Part shown: one piece after another, positions 2,005 to 60,832 of the stretch
Layout: each line of letters begins with the position of its first letter
Numbering within the stretch: position 1 is the first letter of the stretch
Source: Leucoraja ocellata
Taxonomy: Eukaryota
DNA length: 64,000 nt
Reading direction: 5' to 3'
Assembly (NCBI GenBank): GCA_036785375.1
Contig: JAWMAR010000064.1
Location: 1,054,001 to 1,118,000, forward strand
Position numbers and translations under genes: made by a program
The notes under the pieces: generated by a model
Seen by the model: only the letters and a program-made list of their open reading frames with translations
The model's database searches: none
Told to the model about the DNA's origin: nothing

Positions 2005-4321
2005 TTCTGTCCGCAGCGCTGATCGCGACTCAGTCCGTTGGTAAACCCGTCTCGTACATGAACTAACTTATGGCGTACCGGCGCCTGCCTATATACAGAT
2101 ATCAGCTGTTGAAATAACCGCCAGTACGTCCTGGCCAATAGCGCTGCTCGCAAATTCAAACTATAACCAATGGCAGGGGACATCCGAGCGAGGCCCCCCC
2201 CCCCCCTTTGGGAACAAAGCGCAATTAGCCGCAGACTGGCGTGTAAAGCAATACACAGCGCTACAGACTTGGCACGTAAAGGTAATACACACTGCGCTGC
2301 CGGGTTGGCGCACAAAGGTTTAAGCAAAGTGATGTCAGCTTAGGGTGTGGGATTTAAACAAATAGCTGCCAGCTGCAGCGCAATGGGTTCTAAATATAGC
2401 GCTACCGGGCAGGCCAATAACGCTCTGGGCTTTAAACATAGCATTCTGGGCTTTAAACATGGCTCACGCTGTGGGTTGCACACTGTTCGGGCAAAATTCA
2501 CGTATAACACAGGCCCTTTGGCCCACCGAGTCTGCGCCAACCAATGATCACCTTGAACACTAGCACTATCCTACACAGTAGGGACAAAGTACAATTTACA
2601 GAAGGCAATTAACCTACAAACCTGTACGCCTTTGGAGTGTGGCAGGAAATCTGAGCAACTGGAGAAAACCCACGTGGTCACAGGAAGAGCGTACAAATTC
2701 GTACAAACAGCACGCATAGTCGGGATCGAAACCGGTCTCTGGTGCTGTAGGGCAGCAACTCTACAGTTGTGCCACTGTGCTGCCCAAGGCACAGGTGTCA
2801 GGGCATCAAGTACAGGAGTCGGGACACCATATTACAGCTGTACCTGACATTAGTTAGGCCGCATTTGGAGTACCATGTACGCATGTACCATGTACCATTC
2901 TGGTCTCCCTGCTCATTAAACTGGAAAATGGGCAAAAATGATTTTGGGAGAATGATTTTGGGAGACTGGGTATGGAGGGTTTGAGTTAGAAGTAGAGACC
3001 AGGGAGGCTAGGACATTTGTCCCTGGAACATGGGAGTTTGAGGTGTAACCTCTTTGAGGTTGATAAAATAAATATAGTGAATAGCCTCAGTATTTCCCCA
3101 AGGGTAGGGGAGTCTAAAATTAAAGGGGACAGATTTAAACTGAGAGGGGAATAATGTAACGGAGTTGTGGAGCACAGGGGCTGCATATGTGGAACAAAGG
3201 TGTCATAGGACGTGGTGGAGTACAATTCCAACTTTTAAAAGACACTTGGGCAGATACTTGGACAGGAGAGATTTGGAGGGATATAGGCAATAAACAGTAG
3301 GTGCAGGAGTAGGCCAGAGAACCGGCCTCCACCGCCTTCCTGAGGCAGAGAATTCCACAGACTCACAACTCTGTGTGTGAAAAAGTGTTTCCTCGTCTCT
3401 GTTCCAAATGCTTTACCCCTTATTCTTAAACCCCTGGTTCTGGACTCCCCCAACATCGGGAACATATGGGCCAGCCGCAGGCAAGTGGGACTATCTCAAT
3501 TAAGTTTTGTCCTGGATGAGTTGATCCAGAGCCCTTGTTTGACTGCTCTATGATTCTAATTATTCCCCCTTTGAAAAGAGAATTATGAAAATACCAGAAA
3601 TGTCATTTCAATGGAGATTCGGGACAGAGTCTTCTATAGGCTCTAGCTTTGCTATGATCAGATGTGTACATCGGATTCATTATGTTAATTTGAAAACTCA
3701 TAATTATTGAAATTGGAGAACTGCTTGACATGAATAGGTTTTAAAATACAAGAAAATAAATTTATGTCCCATTTACACAAACATATTATAACTGCGTTCT
3801 CACTTAACACAGTTTTGCTTATCTGGTTACTTTCAATGTTTACTTTCCATTCTATTCAGTTTAAATCATTGGTTAATTATTTTTCTAATAATGAAAGCAA
3901 CCTTAAATTATCCTCTCTCTCCTTTCTTCCTATCTCTGATATCTCTCCACCCTTTCTTGATTTCTGACTCCATTACAAGGGACAGACTATCAACTGATGT
4001 CTACTACAAACCTACCAACCCACAATTATCTGGACTACACTTCCTGCCTCTTCCTAAATTCAATTCCTCCATCTCCATCACATCTGCTCCCAAGATGAGG
4101 CTTTCCAATCTAGGAAATCTGAGATATCCTCTTTCTTTATAAGCATGATTTCCCCCACTGCTGTCATGGAAGATTCCCTCACCGTATCTCCTCTGTCTCC
4201 CGTAGTTCTGCACTCGCCTCACCTCACCCCAGACAGATCAAGGATATTCCCCTGGTCCTCATCTTTCACCCCACCAACCTCCACATCAAACATAAAATCC
4301 TCTAACATTTAGTGACCTGAC

Positions 4322-11066: not shown

Positions 11067-11187
11067 ATGACAGTCTCATCTCTTCTTGTAGTGATCCTCA
11101 GTATTACTTTGCCTCCTCTCTCTCTTTGCTTGGACTGGAGATGTTCGGATGATTACTATTTAGCTGATGATAACTTCACATGTGCTC
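11067..11187 (+). CDS. EGF: Pro-EGF coding exon 1 (signal peptide + N-terminal Cys pair)
   Basis: MTVSSLLVVILSITLPPLSLCLDWRCSDDYYLADDNFTCA then C|GTAAGT donor (phase 1); hydrophobic leader and W-x-C...N-x-T-C pattern as in mammalian pro-EGF; joins exon 2 in frame. Confidence 0.85.
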
Positions 11188-25264: not shown

Positions 25265-26031
25265 GGGATGGATTGTGTGGATAGCGCACAAATGGTGTGG
25301 ATGGGGAAGGAGCTGGATTACATGCAGCAGGTGAAGAGGTGAAGAAGAAGTGTACACTCCATTGAGGATAAATGGGGATCCTGTGGATAGGGTGAACTGT
25401 TTTAAATATCTGGGAGTCCACATCTCTGAGGATATGACATGGTCATCACACGCCTCAGCACTCGTGAGTAAGGCAAGGCAGCGCCTTTACCACCTCAGGC
25501 AATTGAGGAAATTCAGAGTGTCTCCGAGGATCCTCCAGTGCTTCTACGCAGCGGCGGTGGAAAGCATCTTGTCCAGGAATATTACCATCTGGTTCGGGAA
25601 TTGCTCTGCCAAGGACAAGAAGGGTCTGCAGAGAGTAGTGCGTTCGGCCGAACGCACTATGGGAACTTCACTCACCCCCCTGCAGGAACTATACAACAGG
25701 AGGTGCAACTCCAGAGCAAACAAAATCATGAGAGACCTCTTCCACCCCTGCAACGGACTGTTCCAGCCGCTACGGTCAGGCAAACGCCTCCGTTGCCATG
25801 CGGTGAGAACGGAGAGGTTGAGAATTCGGACTGTAAACGCCTTTCTCACCAGGGACTAACTGTACAGAAAGTTTTTCATTCTATTATTTATTATGTAAAA
25901 TAATATGTGTGTTATGATTGTGTTTATAATTTGTTTGGATGTTTTGTTGTTCCGCGAGCATTGCCACTTTCATTTCACTGCACATCTCGTATGTGTATGT
26001 GACAAATAAACTTGACTTGACTTGACTTGAC
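25265..26031 (+). mobile_element. Rex1/Babar-like LINE 3' fragment
   Basis: YTPLRINGDPVDRVNCFKYLGVHISEDMTWSSH...KARQRLYHLRQLRKF; AATAAA plus (CTTGA)n tail. Confidence 0.85.
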
Positions 26032-29199: not shown

Positions 29200-30278
29200 C
29201 AGGGCCGGCCTTAGAAGGTGCGGGGCCAATTGGGAACAATTTTGGTGAGTCCCAGGTTCCCAGCCAAGGTCTGTAGCATCATAGAAAATACAAATAAAGT
29301 CTATTATAGACTTTATATCTCTATGGTAGAATGGAAAGTAATCAAAATATGCGCTTGAAAAATGCCTGCGAGTTAATGGACCAAACAGATCTAAGCTACA
29401 TTTTAATAAAAAAGTGCATGCATTTAAGCCTACAAGTAACAAACAAAATGTGTAGATCACCTCTGAAAAGTACATAGTTACAATACCACTTGTTTTTAGT
29501 GACTGTGAAATGAAATTATATATTTTGTAATTAAAAAATTACTATTGGCTAAAAACCAGTCCAGGCATTAAATGTTGGGTTTCNNNNNNNNNNNNNNNNN
29601 NNNNNNNNNNNNNNNNNNNNNNNNNNNNNNNNNNNNNNNNNNNNNNNNNNNNNNNNNNNNNNNNNNNNNNNNNNNNNNNNNNNNNNNNNNNNNNNNNNNN
29701 NNNNNNNNNNNNNNNNNNNNNNNNNNNNNNNNNNNNNNNNNNNNNNNNNNNNNNNNNNNNNNNNNNNNNNNNNNNNNNNNNNNGAAGGAAGGAGAGAAGG
29801 GAGGAGCGATGAAGGGAAGGGCAAAGGAGGGATAGAAGGGGAGGAGAGAAGGGAGGGAGAGGGCCAGCGGCAGGAGCAGATGCCAGGGTCCGGGCAGACG
29901 GGTGTGAGCTGTATGTGACAAATAAACTTGACTTGACTTGACTTGAGCTGAGGCCGATGTTTGTAAACGTTGCTCCAACCTCCATCCGGCCTCTCTGTAT
30001 TGTTCACCGCGTCTCCCGGAAAGGAGAGTGGTGGAGCCGGGGCTGTGTGCGTGAAGCACGGTGACTGGAGGGGGCGGGAGCGCTGCCACCTCCCTCTTTC
30101 CATTCCCCCTCACACCCCATCCCCGTCTATCCCTTTCTTCCCCCTCTACCCCTCTACACTCTCTCCACCCTCTCTCCCCCTTCACCTGAGCCGAGAGTAG
30201 ATTACTCTGGCGTGGGGTCCCCCTTAGGCGCGGGCCCAATTGGGAGCAATCGGTCCAATCGGCTAAAGGCCGACCCTG
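29200..30278. mobile_element. Non-autonomous hAT-type DNA transposon (spans an assembly gap)
   Basis: TIRs CAGGGCCGGCCTTAG / CTAAAGGCCGACCCTG; 8-bp TSD CTCAGGAC / TTCAGGAC. Confidence 0.85.
29584..29783. other. Assembly gap (200 N)
   Basis: Run of N. Confidence 1.
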
Positions 30279-31540: not shown

Positions 31541-31781
31541 NNNNNNNNNNNNNNNNNNNNNNNNNNNNNNNNNNNNNNNNNNNNNNNNNNNNNNNNNNNN
31601 NNNNNNNNNNNNNNNNNNNNNNNNNNNNNNNNNNNNNNNNNNNNNNNNNNNNNNNNNNNNNNNNNNNNNNNNNNNNNNNNNNNNNNNNNNNNNNNNNNNN
31701 NNNNNNNNNNNNNNNNNNNNNNNNNNNNNNNNNNNNNNNNNNNNNNNNNNNNNNNNNNNNNNNNNNNNNNNNNNNNNNNNN
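31541..31781. other. Assembly gap (241 N)
   Basis: Run of N. Confidence 1.
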
Positions 31782-33342
31782 NTGAGCACATGCCAGTGCC
31801 CGTTGTTTTCCCCTTGGGAAAGTGAGTAGAGTGAGAATCATGTGATAGGAGCAGTATTAGGCCATTTGGCCCATCATGTCTATATCATTCAATCATGGCT
31901 GATCTATCTCTCCTTCCTAACCTCATTATCCTGGCTTCTCCCTATAACCTCTGACACCCCTACTAATCAAGAATCTATTTATTTCTGCCTTAAATGTATC
32001 CATTGAGGGAATAGGGAATAGAGAATGTGAGAATTTGTTCAGCTATGCCCACTCTTAGTTATCTCTCCGAGAACTTATACATTTATAAATTTCTGAGCAT
32101 ACGCAAACTGCTGACAGATGAGACTTCAGATACAGGAAACAAGCAGAAAGCAAACTGCTGGTCAGGCTGAGGGAAATAGACCATTGATGATGTTTTATGT
32201 CGGTACCTTTCCGAAAAGTCATCTGGGTCTTTCCCGCCACAGATGTCGACTCACTCAGTTCCCCCAGCAGTTTGTCTTTTACTAAAGTATAGATTGCTAT
32301 TAACTATCATATTAATTTATTTGGTTTCTTTCTATTCTGATTTATTCCCTTTGTTCTACCCATCTCTCCCTCACCTGTATCACTGAAAACTAACTTGTTA
32401 CCTCTCTTTCCCTGCCCGGGCAAAAGGTCCCACATTCTTTCCACAGGTGCTTACTGACCTGCTGAGTGTTTCCATCATTTTAATTTTTGTTTTTTTCAGT
32501 TTTACAGATACAGCGCGGAAACAGGCTCTTTCGGCCCAGCGGGTCCGCAGCTACCAGCGGTCCCCACACATTAACACTATCCTATACCCATTAGGGGCAA
32601 TTTTTGCATCTACCATGCCAATGAACCTACATACCTGTACGTCTTTGGAGTGTGGGAGGGGAGCGAAGATCCTGGAGAAAACCCATGCAGGTCACGGGGG
32701 GATGTAGTCAGGATCGAACCCAAGTCTCCGGCCCTGCATTGCTGTAAGGCAACAACTCTACCTCTGCGCCACCGTGCCGCCCATATTTATTTATTGCTTT
32801 TATTTCAGATACTAAAATCTGCTTTTCTTACCTTTTTTCATTTACGTATTGACGACAACATAATGCTCAAGTGATTTTATGCAAGTGAATTTGACCGATA
32901 GCATGTCAATGAACTTGGAAGAAGTGTAAGATATCGAAAAAAAATATAGAGATTCATTCCAGAATTGAAGGCTTTGACAAAAGAAGCAATCGTGTTTGAC
33001 ACTGGGATGAAGAGGTGGGGCAGGGCACAAGACATTTGACATAAAACATAAAACATAGAACTTAGAATTGCACAGCACAGGAGCAGGTCCTTCAGGTCAC
33101 AGTGTCTGTTCTGCACATGATCACAACTTAAACTAATCATTTATGCCTGTGTGCTTTCCACATCCCTCCAATCCACGAGTAGGATAAAGAATGCAGATCC
33201 TTGGTTTGTTGTGCAACTAGAAATATTTAGAAAAGTAGTAAAGAGATGCTGAGATGAATATGAGACTAGGAATTATGAATGATGATTGGATGAATAAAGG
33301 AACTAACATTGGCCATCATACACAGACAGGCAGGTCACAGAA

Positions 33343-34206: not shown

Positions 34207-35252
34207 TTAGTGTTTAAGAAGGAACTGCAGATGCTGGAGAATCGAAGGTACACAAAAAAGCTGGAGAAACTCAGCGGGTGCAGCAGCATCTATGGAGCGA
34301 AGGAAATAGGCAACGTTTCGGGCCGAAACCCTTCTTCAGACTGATCGGGGGCGGGGGTGGGCGGGGACAAGAAAGGAAAAAGGAGGAGGAGCCCGAAGGC
34401 TGAGGGATGGGAGGGGACAGCAGGGGGACTGAGGAAGGGGAGGAGACAGCAAGGACTAACAAAATTGGGAGAATTCGATGTTCATGCCCCCAGGATGCAG
34501 ACTCCCCAAACGGAATATGAGGTGCTGTTCCTCCAATTTCCGGTGCTGCTCGCTGTGGCCATGGAGGAGACCAAGGACAGAGAGGTCGGAGACGGAGTGG
34601 GAGGGGGAGTTGAAGTGCTAAGCCACCGGGAGGTCAGCTTGGTTTTTGCGGACCGAGCGGAGGTGTTCGGTGAAACGATCGCCCAACCTCCGCTTGGTCT
34701 CACCGATATAGATCTGCTGACATCTAGAGCAGCGGACGCAATAGATGAGGTTGGAAGAGATGCAGGTAAACCTCTGTCGCACCTGGAACGATTGCTTGGG
34801 TCCTTGAACGGAGTCGAGGGGGGAGGTAAAGGGACAAGTGTTGCATCTCTTGCGGTTGCAAGGGAAAGTGCCCGGGGAAGGGGTGGTACGAGAGGGAAGG
34901 GAAGAATTGACAAGGGAGTTATGGAGGGAGTGTTCTTTGCGGAAGGCAGATATGGGGGGAGATGGGAAGATGTGGCGAGTGGTGGGGTCACGTTGGAGGT
35001 GGTGAAACTGACGGAGGATTATTTTTGTATGTGACGGCTGGTGGGGTGAAAGGTGGGGACTAGGGGGACTCGGCCCTTGTTGCGAGTGGGGGTATGGGGA
35101 GAGAGAGCAGTATGGCGGGGTATGGAAGAGACCCTGGTGCGAGCCTCATTTATGGTGGAGGAGGGGAACCCCCGTTCCCTGAATAATGAGGACATTTCAG
35201 ATGTCCTGGTGTGGAACGCCTCATCCGTGGAGCAGATGCGGCGTAGACGGAG
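34207..35252 (-). mobile_element. Penelope-like element, 5'-truncated, young
   Basis: Minus strand NLIYCVRCSRCQQIYIGETKRRLGDRFTEHL (GIY-YIG); 14-bp TSD GACTCTCAAAATAT at 34193-34206 and 35253-35266. Confidence 0.9.
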
Positions 35253-35687
35253 GACTCTCAAAATATGTTTTTAATTATTTTATTCCCCTTTTCAATTGAT
35301 CCATGCAAGCAATCTCACTTGCAAAAACAACCTGCAACAATGCATTCTCACGGGTCATTTATTAAGTTGCAGAGAAAAGGAAGTCTGGTCTTAAATTTAC
35401 TATCCAAAATAGTCTTTCATTTCAAATGATTCTGAATAAAAATATCTTTAAAGAGGTTGTGCTGGATAATGATCAAGATAAGGATGTCAACACTTATATA
35501 TAATGTTATGAAGTATGATTTGCAGATAAATTGTGTCAACATTGTTCAGGTGTTCAGACAAAATAATCCTCCAGCCAAGTTTTTTACGCTGTTTACATGT
35601 GCAACATGACTAATCATTGCATTGTGTGGAACAATAACTGCAAATAGTCGGTTGGCTCGTCACACTGTTGTAAATTCTATCTTTCAG

Positions 35688-35811
35688 ACATCAATGAATG
35701 TTTTGGTGGTAATTGTGGTCAGATCTGTACCAACATGCCAGGCTCACAGCCCTGCTCCAACATGGCTGGTTACATGTTAGAGGACAATATAATGGTCAGG
35801 TCATCCAAACC
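35688..35811 (+). pseudogene. Degenerate calcium-binding EGF pseudo-exon in EGF intron 1
   Basis: Acceptor attctatctttcag| then phase-1 frame (x)INECFGGNCGQICTNMPGSQPCSNMAGYMLEDNIMVRSSKP*; Cys5 and Cys6 absent; nearest GT (35812) is one nt out of phase. Confidence 0.75.
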
Positions 35812-36014
35812 GTAATCGCTGATTACATCGTGCTTTAAAGCAAACGGAATGCAAGAGTAGAGCAAAAACAAAAATATAAATGGAAACTTAATATTTTAAC
35901 ACTACTGAGGCATCTGATCAACATTCATGCTGAGTTCAACACAAAAACCTGGAGTAACTCAGCGGGTCAGATAGCATCTCTGGGGAAAAGGATCACTTGG
36001 CTACATTTTTTTTA

Positions 36015-37615
36015 GTTTAGTTTAATTTATTGTTATGTGTACTGAGGTGCAGTGAAAAGCTTTTAGTCACAGGCAATCCAGTCAGCGGAAAGACCACACA
36101 TGATTCCAATTGAGTCATCCACAGTGTACAGCTACAGGATAAAGGGAATAACGTTTAGTGCAAAATAAAGTCTGATTAAAGGTAGTCCGAGTATCTCCAA
36201 TGAAGTAGGTAGTAGCTTAGGACCGCTCTCTAGTTGCTGTTAGGATGTTTCCTAACTGTCCCTGAATCTGGAGGTGTGTTTTTTCACACCTCTGTAGCTC
36301 TTGTCTGTTTGGAGAGGGGAGTAGTCCTTGATTAAGCTGGTGACCTTGCCAAGGCAGCGTGAGTGTAGATGGAGTCAATGGAAAGTTGGCTTGTGTGATT
36401 ATCTGGGCTGCATCCTCAATTCTCTGCAATTTCTTGCAGTTTTGGATGGAGCTGTTCCCAAACAATGCTGTGATGCATCTCGATTAAATGCTTTTTACGA
36501 CGCTTTTGTAGAACTCGGTGAGGGTTGGCGACACGCAGAACTTCCTAAATATTCTAAGGATGTATAGACATTGGTGTGCTTTCATGGCCAGTGCTTCGAT
36601 ATGGCTAGTCCATGACAGGTTGCTGGTTATATTTTCTCCTAGGAACTTGAAGCTTTCCACCATCTCTACTTTAACGCCGTCAATGTATAACATTGATATG
36701 TGTAAAGGGCATGTCCCACCAGCATGCGATTGCATGCGTCTAGCGCGCCCAAACGTGGTCGCTTGAGGCGTACGGCCTCACGGGGCATGTCCCACTTCAA
36801 TCGGCGGAGGTGTATGGAGTTGTGTGGGGCTGGTCCCGACATCGCGCGGGGTTCCAAAAATCTTGCACTGTCCGAAGATCCTGCGCGAAAAACGGCCTGA
36901 CGGCCCGCAGGCGCATTGAGGGCGTACGCAGTGTCTCGACGGCCGTACGCAGCGTCTTGACGTCATACACAGCGTCTTGACGGCGTACGCCTAGCGCGTG
37001 GCGTTGCGCGATGACGTCACCGCCCGGCGTGCCGTTGCGTGATGACATCACCGCCCGACGCCTTGCGACGTCCAAATTCAGTCGACCCGCCTCCTGCCCA
37101 GCTGATTGGTCAGTTTGATGTCGGGAGCAGCCCTGCACAACTCCATACGTTTCCGCTGTTCGAATTGAGACTGGCCCCGCACGGCTGTACTCCTCAAGCG
37201 ACCACGTTTGGTCGCGCTAGACGCATGCAATCGCATGCTGGTGGGACAGGCCCTTAACGCTTTGCTTCTTTAAGGTTGATCACTATCTCCTTTGTCTTGC
37301 TGGCATTGCTAGAAAGGTTGTTGCCTTGACACCAGGTCATGAGGTTCTCAATCGCACGGTCCTGTACTCAATGTTGTCATTATTTGATAGCCAGCCCACT
37401 ACAGTGGTGTCATCTGCGAATTTGTAAATTGGGTTTGATTTGTACATGGCTGCACAGTGTGTGGATCTAAAAGGAGTAAAGAAGGGGGATGAGAACGCAT
37501 CCTTGTGGAGCACCAGTTTTGAGGAATATCATAGAGGATGATTTGTCACCTATCCTCACTAATTGTGGTTTGTTGGTCAGGAAGTCGATGATCCAATTGC
37601 AGAGATGAGTGCTGA
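36015..37615 (-). mobile_element. Decayed Rex1/Babar-like LINE (RT to 3' end), split by a MITE
   Basis: Minus strand IYKFADDTTVVG and VESFKFLG..ITSNLSW. Confidence 0.75.
36706..37254. mobile_element. PIF/Harbinger-type MITE, long inverted arms, CpG-rich
   Basis: AGGGCATGTCCCACCAGCATGCGATTGCATGCG...CGCATGCAATCGCATGCTGGTGGGACAGGCCCT; TAA TSD. Confidence 0.88.
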
Positions 37616-40609: not shown

Positions 40610-40809
40610 CTCCTCCACCTTACCTGATCTTCAGCCATGGTAATGCAATATTCAAGATTGACAGAGAAGGGACAAACCACCAGAGGATTGTGACAAACTC
40701 CGGGCTCTCAGTTCTCTTGGATTTCCACTACAGGAATGGAGAGATCTACTGGGCAGATACTGAGAGAGGCCTATTGCAACAGGCCTTCATAAATGGCACA
40801 GACAGAAAG
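40610..40809 (+). CDS. EGF: Pro-EGF exon 2 (start of first YWTD beta-propeller)
   Basis: ttctttaag|..|GTGAGC, 200 nt; PPPYLIFSHGNAIFKIDREGTNHQRIVTNSGLSVLLDFHYRNGEIYWADTERGLLQQAFINGTDRK, matches pro-EGF PFLIFSHGNSIFRID...DFHY...IYWVD. Confidence 0.96.
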
Positions 40810-44335: not shown

Positions 44336-44668
44336 AATAAACGTAGAGCTGTGCTGAAATGCCGTGTGTATAATTTGAGTGAAAAGAACATAAAAATACA
44401 TCAATGATTCAGTAAATATTCTAACAACACTATTGTACTGCAAACTCGGTGGAAAGGCACACAGTTATAATGAAAATTATGTGCACACAATTATGGAGCC
44501 CAATTAGTGTAATGATATGTTGATTAATTGTCGACTGATGTCAACTTCTTCAAAGAAGGAAATTCGCCCATATGAACAAAGAGCTAATTAATGGATGAAT
44601 AAATTCAAGAAAGTTACAATTCTGAAGAAAATATCGAAGAACGTGAATCTTTTTTCTTTGCATCACAG

Positions 44669-44850
44669 ATTGTACGGGCTGTGGGGAAAGGTCTCCTGGG
44701 CTTTGCTGTGGATTGGTTGCACAACACAATCATCTGGACTAATCGGAAGAAAGGAACCATTGAAATGTCGAACTTACACGGCAAAAATGCCAAGGTCCTT
44801 CTGAAAAATCTAACCTTTCCCACCTTCATGGCAGTCGAACCAGAGGAAGG
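44669..44850 (+). CDS. EGF: Pro-EGF exon 3 (LDLR class B repeats)
   Basis: catcacag|..|GTAGGA, 182 nt, phase 0 to 2; IVRAVGKGLLGFAVDWLHNTIIWTNRKKGTIEMSNLHGKNAKVLLKNLTFPTFMAVEPEEG. Confidence 0.93.
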
Positions 44851-45104
44851 GTAGGACTTTGGTTTACTACCATTCATATTGATATTGATATTTGATTTAA
44901 ATATGCAACAGGAATGGAAATTAAGATGAAACTCTGCAATAATTTTATGCCTTCAAATAAATCGACCAAACTATGATTTAACAAAAAACTTTTGATGCAT
45001 AGACAAAATTGAAGAGTTTAAGCTATCTCTTGCCAAGGGAACTGGGCATAAATGTCACTTTTAATTTGTTGGAAGCTGTAGATTAGTACCACTTTTCTTT
45101 ATGA

Positions 45105-45630: not shown

Positions 45631-46110
45631 CTACGTCTAAGATTATGGATTTATGACTTGAAACATAATTATTATTTCATAGCCTTCTCTATGTGTGCTC
45701 ATCAAAGAGATTTTTTTTTTTACAGATTCACACAACCATTGAGTAACACAATAAAATATCTAATTTATCAATGATTTTGGAAGACTAATGCAGAAATGTC
45801 CCAGTATAGTTGGATATAAAAATGACAATGCCTTCTAATATGGAGGCAACTACTTAGTATTTATAGGGAAAGATTTAAACTCTCCATTTATTCCACATTA
45901 TACCGGGAATAATTTTTTGCTTAAAGCTCACATTGAATTCACTAAAGAGAAAAATGTTTTTTCTACATTAACAGATCCATAATGTACTTTACTATTTATA
46001 AACCGTTAACAAATTGTCCTAATGTCAACCTGGCAAACGCCCAAACTGCTTTTGAAAATTCCACAACATTACAAAGATTTTTAACTCAACTTGCTTAATT
46101 TTATTCCAAG

Positions 46111-46341
46111 GTACATGTTTTGGGCTACAGAAGGTTCTGTTCCGAGTATTCATCGTGCTAATCTAAATGCCACAACAGCCATCTCCATTGCCAAGCCCTG
46201 GTCCAAAGTGAAGTCTTTGACATTGGATCTCATTGACAAACGACTCTACTGGGTTCAACATGACACTGAGAATATCTCAAGCAGCATTGGGTCATGTGAC
46301 TACACTGGAGGCTCAGCTCAGATCATCAAACATTCGATACG
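46111..46341 (+). CDS. EGF: Pro-EGF exon 4 (LDLR class B repeats)
   Basis: ttccaag|..|GTAAGT, 231 nt, phase 2 to 2; YMFWATEGSVPSIHRANLNA...LDLIDKRLYWVQH...IGSCDYTGGSAQIIKHSIR (inside ORF 46091..46345). Confidence 0.95.
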
Positions 46342-46884
46342 GTAAGTGCGTTGACAAGAACATTAGGTCATTGTTCCATCCCATTAATTACTTTCCACCA
46401 ATGGTTTTTTCAACAAAACAAAAATTGATTTTCCATTGTCCAGTGCCTCAGCTCCATTTTGAAGTTAGTTTTTTATCTAGTGCATCACAGTTTCAGTTTA
46501 ATTATAGATACGGCATGGAATTGGCCCTTAGGGCCCACTGAGTCCATGCCGACCAAAGGTCTCCCACTCGTTCACTCCAGCTCTATGTTTTCTCATTTTC
46601 TCATCCACTCCTTTCACGGGAGGCCAATTAACTTACTAACCCGCAACTCTTCATTGACTTTATTTGATAATTAAAAGAGTGCAGAACTTTCATGTTGATA
46701 AGTTCATAGGTCATAGGAGCAGAATTAGGCCATTGAGTCTTTCCAGTCTACTCTGCCATTCTCTTGTACTAAAATATTTTTCATGAGGCGGTAAGTGCCT
46801 TCATTTGACTCTTATATGAAAAGGAATTGGACGGCATACAAGTAGATCAAAACCCAAAATGTTCTATTGATTTGGCTTTTCTCA

Positions 46885-47972: not shown

Positions 47973-48175
47973 CCACTGGCCATTTGGAATTTCTCTTTTT
48001 GAGGAACACATATACTACTCAGATTGGAAGACGGGCACAATTCGCCGAGCAAACAAGTTCACTGGGAAGGACATAGTCGTCATCAACCCTAGACTGTCCT
48101 TTCTGCCGCCAGCTGATGTGAAAGTGGTGCATCCATCCCGCCAGCCGACAGCTGGAACAGACCCACAATTAGCAG
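47973..48175 (+). CDS. EGF: Pro-EGF exon 5 (end of first beta-propeller)
   Basis: ccacatag|..|GTACAT, 203 nt, phase 2 to 1; HWPFGISLFEEHIYYSDWKTGTIRRANKFTGKDIVVINPRLSFLPPADVKVVHPSRQPTAGTDPQLA. Confidence 0.95.
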
Positions 48176-49795: not shown

Positions 49796-50324
49796 TTTCA
49801 GATGAAAATTGTTCAAATGTTTAAGAAGGAACTGCAGATGCTGGAAAATCGAAGGTAGACAAAAGTGCTGGAGAAACATCTTCAGAAGGGTTTTGGCCCG
49901 AAACGTTGCTTATTTCCTTCGCTCCATAGATGCTGCTGCACCCGCTGAGTTTCTCCAGCATTTTTGTCTACCTAGCATTGTTGAAATAATTGCCCTATTT
50001 CACTATCTTTAGATTTGTAGGCTCTCATGTCACTCATAGAGGCAAGAGGGTCTGTTACATTGGGTACTCTCTCCTAGTCTGGAGTCTTGTTCATGGAAGT
50101 CTCATCATTTTCTGCTCGTTTATTTTCAAAGCTGCAATCCATTCATATCGTATCCACAATCACTCCCTAAACAAACCCGGAGGAAAGGATTTGCATATCT
50201 GGAAAATTCAAAGCCTTGGTTTCTGTTATCTGCTCTTTAATCAAATGGGAAACACTGGGCTAAATTGGAGTTATTGAACCTTGTTAACTTTGAAATGTTA
50301 CCGTTTTAATAAACTTTTCCACAG

Positions 50325-50423
50325 AAAATGGAACAGGAAGCGTTTGCAAGAAAAGCTTCAATGGAACGTGCTGCAAGTGTAAAGATGGTTATGTACTCAG
50401 TGATGATCAGAAATCATGTCGAG
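50325..50423 (+). CDS. EGF: Pro-EGF exon 6 (shortened EGF-like module 1)
   Basis: ttttccacag|..|GTAAAC, 99 nt, phase 1 to 1; ENGTGSVCKKSFNGTCCKCKDGYVLSDDQKSCR, C-terminal half matches CMCAEGYALSRDRKYCE. Confidence 0.88.

Positions 50424-55016: not shown

Positions 55017-55274
<258 letters not shown>

Positions 55275-58296: not shown

Positions 58297-58494
<198 letters not shown>

Positions 58495-60506: not shown

Positions 60507-60832
<326 letters not shown>

Follow-up and report, generated by a model that had tools for sequence, protein, structure and literature searches.

The window analysed here, a stretch of 64,000 nucleotides of skate DNA, includes the 5' region of a pro-EGF gene, and the first intron of this gene holds a piece that reads like an exon for a calcium-binding EGF (cbEGF) module. 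An earlier note on this DNA took the piece for the lost EGF-B unit of an LDLR-like ancestor of pro-EGF. The locus thus raises the questions of whether the piece belongs to pro-EGF at all, when it went out of use, and whether it still has a role.

Results

A decayed cbEGF exon in the first intron of skate pro-EGF

The features of the locus are collected in Table 1. Exon 1 shares 39 of 40 residues with the pro-EGF of Leucoraja and Amblyraja. In its two-cysteine tail the Gly of the C-x-x-G-Y motif is replaced by Asp (11151-11153), and its last base is C, so that a product including the intronic exon would begin the module with His and not Asp; the tail Asp and the same junction Pro are found in all three named skates. 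The codon adjoining the first tail cysteine (11145-11147) encodes Ser in the window and Leu in Leucoraja, Amblyraja and Rhinoraja. Intron 1 also includes two runs of N (29584-29783 and 31541-31782) and an element at 36702-37258 that looks like a small DNA transposon, with 142-base inverted ends that are 85% complementary, short internal tandem repeats, and a high copy number in related runs. Three long stop-free frames, at 14731-13790 (-), 25335-25856 (+) and 34345-35145, are presumably retroelement remnants, judging by their motifs; the frame at 34345-35031 has no Pfam match.

Table 1. Positions in the window of pro-EGF exons and of the fossil exon with its lesions.
Feature	Coordinates	Strand	Remarks
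EGF exon 1, coding part	11067-11187	+	Signal peptide and two-cysteine EGF tail; phase-1 end, donor gtaagt
Exon-1 tail	11142-11187	+	Cys 11142-11144 to Cys 11181-11183
Acceptor region of fossil exon	35663-35687	+	AG at 35686-35687 after pyrimidine tract
Fossil cbEGF exon	35688-35811	+	124 bases; intact orthologues 132, minus 9, plus 1
9-base (3-codon) deletion between Cys1 and Cys2	~35708-35714	+	Placed by alignment; all 79 intact entries have 44 residues
Tyr to Gln and Cys5 to Asn	35747-35761	+	CAG 35747-35749; Cys4 kept 35753-35755; AAC 35759-35761
Extra base (frameshift)	35789-35792	+	Placed by position scan; no gap there in contigs of X5 and X20
Cys6 position	35799-35801	+	GGT in window; GAT in X5, X14 and X20
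Old donor gtaatc	35812-35817	+	Neither G at -1 nor G at +5
First propeller exon	40610-40809	+	Joins exon 1 in frame
Seven further EGF exons (tblastn ranges)	44666-44851, 46109-46342, 47974-48174, 50321-50422, 55065-55187, 58330-58449, 60698-60829	+	

The intronic piece has, as described in the earlier note, a good acceptor followed by a phase-1 frame with Cys1 to Cys4, no Cys5, and a GTAATC at 35812 with a TAA in that frame. Two further details were revised. The note placed an extra C at 35810-35811, whereas a scan of the extra base over all 124 positions fits best at 35789-35792 (score 146-153, against 114.5 at 35810). Downstream of the extra base the fossil reads WSGHPN where the sawfish exon reads WSCHPD, and this match identifies the GGT as the Cys6 position and the GT at 35812 as the orthologous donor position; Cys6 is indeed missing, but it does not appear as the TCC proposed earlier. 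The 9-base deletion and the loss of the invariant Tyr are additional lesions that the note had not recorded.

Among 16 columns that are invariant across 79 intact entries, four are altered in the fossil, including Cys5, Cys6 and the Tyr before Cys4, and the six-cysteine EGF spacing present in 79 of 79 intact entries is lost (Cys5 is Asn and Cys6 is Gly). The calcium-binding consensus of cbEGF modules comprises acidic residues before Cys1, an Asn after Cys3 and an aromatic residue before Cys4; the fossil keeps the Asn and the Glu, has Gln for the Tyr, and would have His for the first Asp if spliced to skate exon 1. The fossil matches Pfam EGF_CA with an E-value of 6.9e-5 and 23.4 bits, under the 27-bit cut-off.

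Several comparisons connect the piece with one particular exon of pro-EGF. It is matched at E 1e-8 when sawfish pro-EGF is compared with the window by tblastn, and 29 of 40 comparable residues are identical to the sawfish exon. An HMM built from intact exons gives it 44.5 bits, the highest score in the window, compared with 12.5 bits or less in 30 of 30 shuffled windows; all other matches above 2 bits are live exons, and no further EGF relics were found in intron 1. In a set of 229 proteins, assembled partly by similarity to the intact exon, the N-terminal exon scores highest at 55.5 bits; the remaining modules of pro-EGF reach 30.4 bits, and 43 other proteins reach 40.4 bits. These HMM scores and the absence of a second copy in the window led us to reject a duplicate of another EGF exon of the gene.

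A cbEGF copy from another gene, or such a duplicate, could in principle have landed in intron 1. The best fibrillin-like modules reach 40.4 bits, near the 40.8-bit median of N-terminal exon-region matches, and a database search with the fossil peptide returned two candidates, none at E<=10. However, the match to the pro-EGF exon extends through the exon-specific end to the donor position, the identity ranks track the species tree, and beyond the lack of a second copy in the window only a chance-level match of 21-23 bases was found elsewhere, so that a stray origin seems most improbable.

The exon is intact in many vertebrates

We classified 186 pro-EGF proteins, of which 109 carry a 44-residue cbEGF module at the same place and 57 skip it (a few of the latter with doubtful N-termini); 14 odd or truncated models and 6 without a propeller start are set aside. 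The identification of the piece as a cbEGF exon of the EGF gene would have fallen had other vertebrates lacked an orthologous exon, and it is upheld, since 24 of 53 non-bird names and 55 of 58 bird proteins have the exon in intact form. It is kept in the chimaera, seven sharks, sawfish, stingray, devil ray, electric ray and four chondrosteans, sturgeons among them, as well as in the coelacanth, four turtles, alligator, tuatara, a skink and birds. Distant keepers share 32-36 of 44 residues, a conservation equal to that of the propeller behind the exon.

The fossil and the intact exon lie in the same gene on the same strand, between exon 1 and the first propeller exon, and both start in phase 1. 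The best matches of the fossil are the sawfish and Mobula exons (29 identities), which belong to the nearest keepers. Like exon 2 of the keepers (for example XP_051901434.1), the fossil ends at the donor position; unlike it, the fossil has two indels and a weak donor in addition to the lost Cys5, Cys6 and Tyr, and is skipped in all skate models found.

Gene models of six species include forms both with and without the exon, and from these it was probably already optional before it was lost in skates. An older Scyliorhinus torazame model skips the exon and six newer ones carry it, and the sole Terrapene model skips it with the tail motif intact. One sturgeon model (P0011) fuses an LRR/Ig protein to pro-EGF; it was flagged as contaminated and excluded from the loss count, and nothing in the window matches its LRR/Ig portion.

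Lesions shared with related contigs and still accumulating

We compared the window with four of the 24 listed runs, in tables crowded by repeats that leave 811 differences unlisted. Over 35400-35967 the contigs of X5 have 10 differing letters and no gaps, and over 35400-35993 those of X20 have 39 differing letters and no gaps. Both indels of the fossil exon are therefore present also in two other organisms, which differ from the window by about 2% and about 7%, and this shows that the lesions are not an assembly error. X5 has in addition a C>G change at 35773, by which the Tyr codon there becomes TAG and the old frame acquires a further stop; of the 13 gap letters in X14, 12 are missing bases somewhere in 35640-35799 as read from the alignment table. 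All three have A at 35800 and T at 35811. The damage to the fossil exon is old, shared, and still going on in different skate-like lineages (X5 and X14).

It follows that we give very little credence to the proposal that the lesions are assembly errors or private alleles and that the exon is functional in skates; we found no support for it, and besides the indels shared by X5 and X20, all five models from the three named skates skip the exon.

The fossil might instead be a regulated poison exon, whose inclusion would cause a frameshift, an early stop and nonsense-mediated decay and in this way tune EGF output. Pseudoexons and poison exons are general classes of intronic exon-like pieces, and the fossil is likewise intronic and exon-like and would give an early stop upon inclusion, at codon 93, or at codon 82 or 89 if one of two nearer GT sites were used; such a stop would lie far upstream in the gene. 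The acceptor seems usable even now, and neither it nor the GT is altered among the listed X5 differences. However, one of the two G residues at -1 and +5 of a donor is usually needed, and this donor has neither, unlike the gene's other donors. Nor is there any sign of the conservation seen in poison exons: three listed X5 differences fall in the 124 exon bases and five in the 444 flanking bases, with two more unlisted, a divergence of 2.4-4.0% in the exon and 1.1-1.6% in the flanks, so that on these small counts the exon is not more conserved than the intron. Lineage-specific decay also continues. In RNA run X22, about 6/100 of which was read, the fossil has no reads, and the bin with the live propeller exon has none either. 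From its donor, conservation and decay we regard a poison exon as unlikely, if the least improbable of the alternatives.

The window-specific changes are also more frequent in the fossil (8 of 40 residues) than in the live exons (33 of 425 residues; p 0.017), although this rate contrast is modest because the live skate exons too have evolved faster than those of sawfish (33 against 8 changes) and only three of eight relative-rate tests reach p<0.05.

The interpretation that we favor, and consider highly probable, is that 35688-35811 is a dead orthologue of pro-EGF exon 2, which passed from an optional exon to one that was always skipped and then decayed. The ancestral pro-EGF would have begun with a signal peptide, a two-cysteine EGF tail encoded by exon 1, one cbEGF module and the first YWTD propeller. 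As a phase 1-1 exon, exon 2 preserves the frame on skipping. Skipping presumably became the rule in the skate ancestor, and the skipped exon would then have suffered the 9-base deletion, the 1-base insertion and the replacement of Cys5, Cys6 and the conserved Tyr, changes that are all seen in the DNA. Skate pro-EGF would now be made by joining exon 1 to the propeller exon, as in mammals.

Probable repeated loss of the exon and decay of the exon-1 tail

The skates whose models skip the exon include Rhinoraja (Arhynchobatidae), and the other two named skates we take to be Rajidae. The named skates and the window share two exon-1 changes, the tail Gly to Asp and the last base C, and the exon was presumably lost before Arhynchobatidae and Rajidae split. 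Other models lacking the exon are those of Chiloscyllium punctatum (0 of 4) and Hemiscyllium (0 of 2), whereas the zebra shark keeps it, and those of two bichirs, Betta, Anabas, Paramormyrops (0 of 6), Pleurodeles (0 of 5), three marsupials and the placentals examined. On the usual vertebrate tree these suggest six separate losses, in skates, bamboo sharks, bichirs, teleosts, a salamander and mammals, with the losses outside skates resting on protein models, which can miss an exon, rather than DNA. The bamboo and epaulette shark models (P0010 and P0134-P0138) have a Tyr in place of the first tail cysteine, which leaves one unpaired Cys, and likely represent a second, shark-side loss. Four Myotis models (P0216, P0217, P0220 and P0222) have an extra piece of about seven residues between exon 1 and the propeller, which is not EGF-like and is probably an alternative acceptor.

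The state of the exon-1 tail follows that of exon 2. The C-x-x-G-Y...C motif is intact in 23 of 24 non-bird keepers and in 53 of 55 bird proteins, the three misses being models without exon 1, and it is broken in all six loss lineages; a hand-drawn lineage table of tail against exon gives p 0.0002, with lineages that are not independent. The breaks differ in kind between lineages, and skates keep both Cys residues and the Tyr. According to the portion available of PMC3415683, the first domain of a tandem EGF pair contributes an aromatic residue that packs against a Gly and a hydrophobic residue in the domain that follows. With the same 39 sequences aligned, AlphaFold models residues 31-40 at a confidence of 69 in sawfish, which has the exon, and of 44 in Amblyraja, which lacks it, a small contrast. 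Most likely the tail is a cap whose Gly-Tyr turn would pack on the cbEGF module, and this role would explain why the tail decays once the module is gone.

Mammalian pro-EGF, in which exon 1 runs straight onto the propeller as in skates, was taken by the earlier note as the norm. The distribution of the exon instead indicates that this layout is itself a derived loss and a reduced form, separate from the loss in skates.

Deep ancestry of the module

In sawfish the intact tail, cbEGF module and propeller start align in one stretch with LRP2 3139-3227, LRP4 380-448 and LDLR 340-424, the best being LRP2 (E 6e-14). EGF, cbEGF and YWTD propeller are present in this order, collinear with the EGF-precursor homology unit of the LDLR family (EGF-A, EGF-B, YWTD propeller), and the closest solved match is LRP2 and not LDLR. 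Pro-EGF differs from that unit in that its signal peptide is followed immediately by just the final two cysteines of the 'A' module, and no complete EGF-A module was found in the vertebrate proteins or in three ambulacrarian ones.

As a statement of deep homology the assignment of tail, cbEGF and propeller to A-tail, B and propeller thus holds, and the view of exon 1 as an EGF-A tail stands in this sense. It does not stand as a simple leftover, the C-x-x-G-Y motif being kept wherever the exon is kept. The lost EGF-B of the earlier note fares similarly: the collinearity with LRP2, LRP4 and LDLR agrees with it, but its timing does not, as the exon is still used in most non-mammalian jawed vertebrates sampled. 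It is scarcely believable that the exon went dead at the origin of pro-EGF from an LDLR-like gene and has stayed in the intron ever since, given the residues still shared by distant vertebrates and the intact exons of four other kinds of ray (sawfish, stingray, devil ray and electric ray). The skate fossil is instead the result of a skate-lineage loss of an old module, and not a direct relic of LDLR ancestry.

Among 150 listed of 953 representative matches, three proteins with LRP4- or LRP5-like names are like pro-EGF: Ptychodera XP_070544757.1, Antedon XP_071954440.1 and Acanthaster XP_022087517.1 (P0237, P0309 and P0389), which are hemichordate, crinoid and starfish pro-EGF orthologues. Each has a signal peptide, a two-cysteine tail, a cbEGF module of 43-44 residues, two propellers, a juxtamembrane EGF module and a membrane helix, and the top match of the Ptychodera juxtamembrane module is to EGF structures (E 8e-14). 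In a tree of the second propeller, set against 25 of 43 unnamed YWTD proteins chosen by score, they fall together with 10 vertebrate pro-EGFs at a support of 100/99. The crinoid protein has the cbEGF module behind a tail that lacks the aromatic residue. From these three proteins the module and its truncated tail would be at least deuterostome-old. A survey of EGF ligands that, in the part available, accepted only single-EGF proteins and reported no EGF-type ligand in sea urchin (PMC4914847) would by that criterion have missed such pro-EGFs. Acanthaster isoform X2 (P0269) begins at the propeller. A further protein of 373 aa (P0291) has a similar cbEGF module and propeller, preceded by the apparent end of a fuller EGF module and not by a signal peptide; its best matches are one LRP-like protein and shark pro-EGFs.

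Discussion

We have described a real dead exon, whose value lies in the gene history that it opens; no new mechanism has been shown. Public databases already include models with the intact exon, and dead exons are nothing unusual, so that the surprise is moderate. Pro-EGF cloning papers for chicken and zebrafish reportedly count EGF-like motifs, and it is possible that the extra module is already in print for chicken or fish. Our literature search, to which subscription papers were mostly inaccessible, found no title on the exon, the fossil or the losses, and the available parts of PMC1618406 and PMC2834686 analyse only the mature EGF motif.

More speculatively, and with more doubt than confidence, one may picture a deuterostome-old pro-EGF with a capped cbEGF module, named 'LRP4/5-like' in hemichordates and echinoderms, in which the module would serve as an optional docking site that depends on calcium, is turned on or off by exon skipping, and controls precursor trafficking, partner binding or shedding. 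Six vertebrate lineages including mammals would have fixed the skipped form independently, the two-cysteine stub of mammals would be an orphaned cap, and the skate fossil would record the order of events.

Since many other vertebrates and the three ambulacrarian orthologues have a well-conserved extra cbEGF module at the N-terminus, mammalian pro-EGF appears to be a reduced protein, and its otherwise odd stub may be accounted for if the exon was lost repeatedly and the exon-1 tail decayed each time. The natural plus and minus forms in sturgeon, coelacanth and zebra shark models would offer a means of probing the role of the large precursor region.
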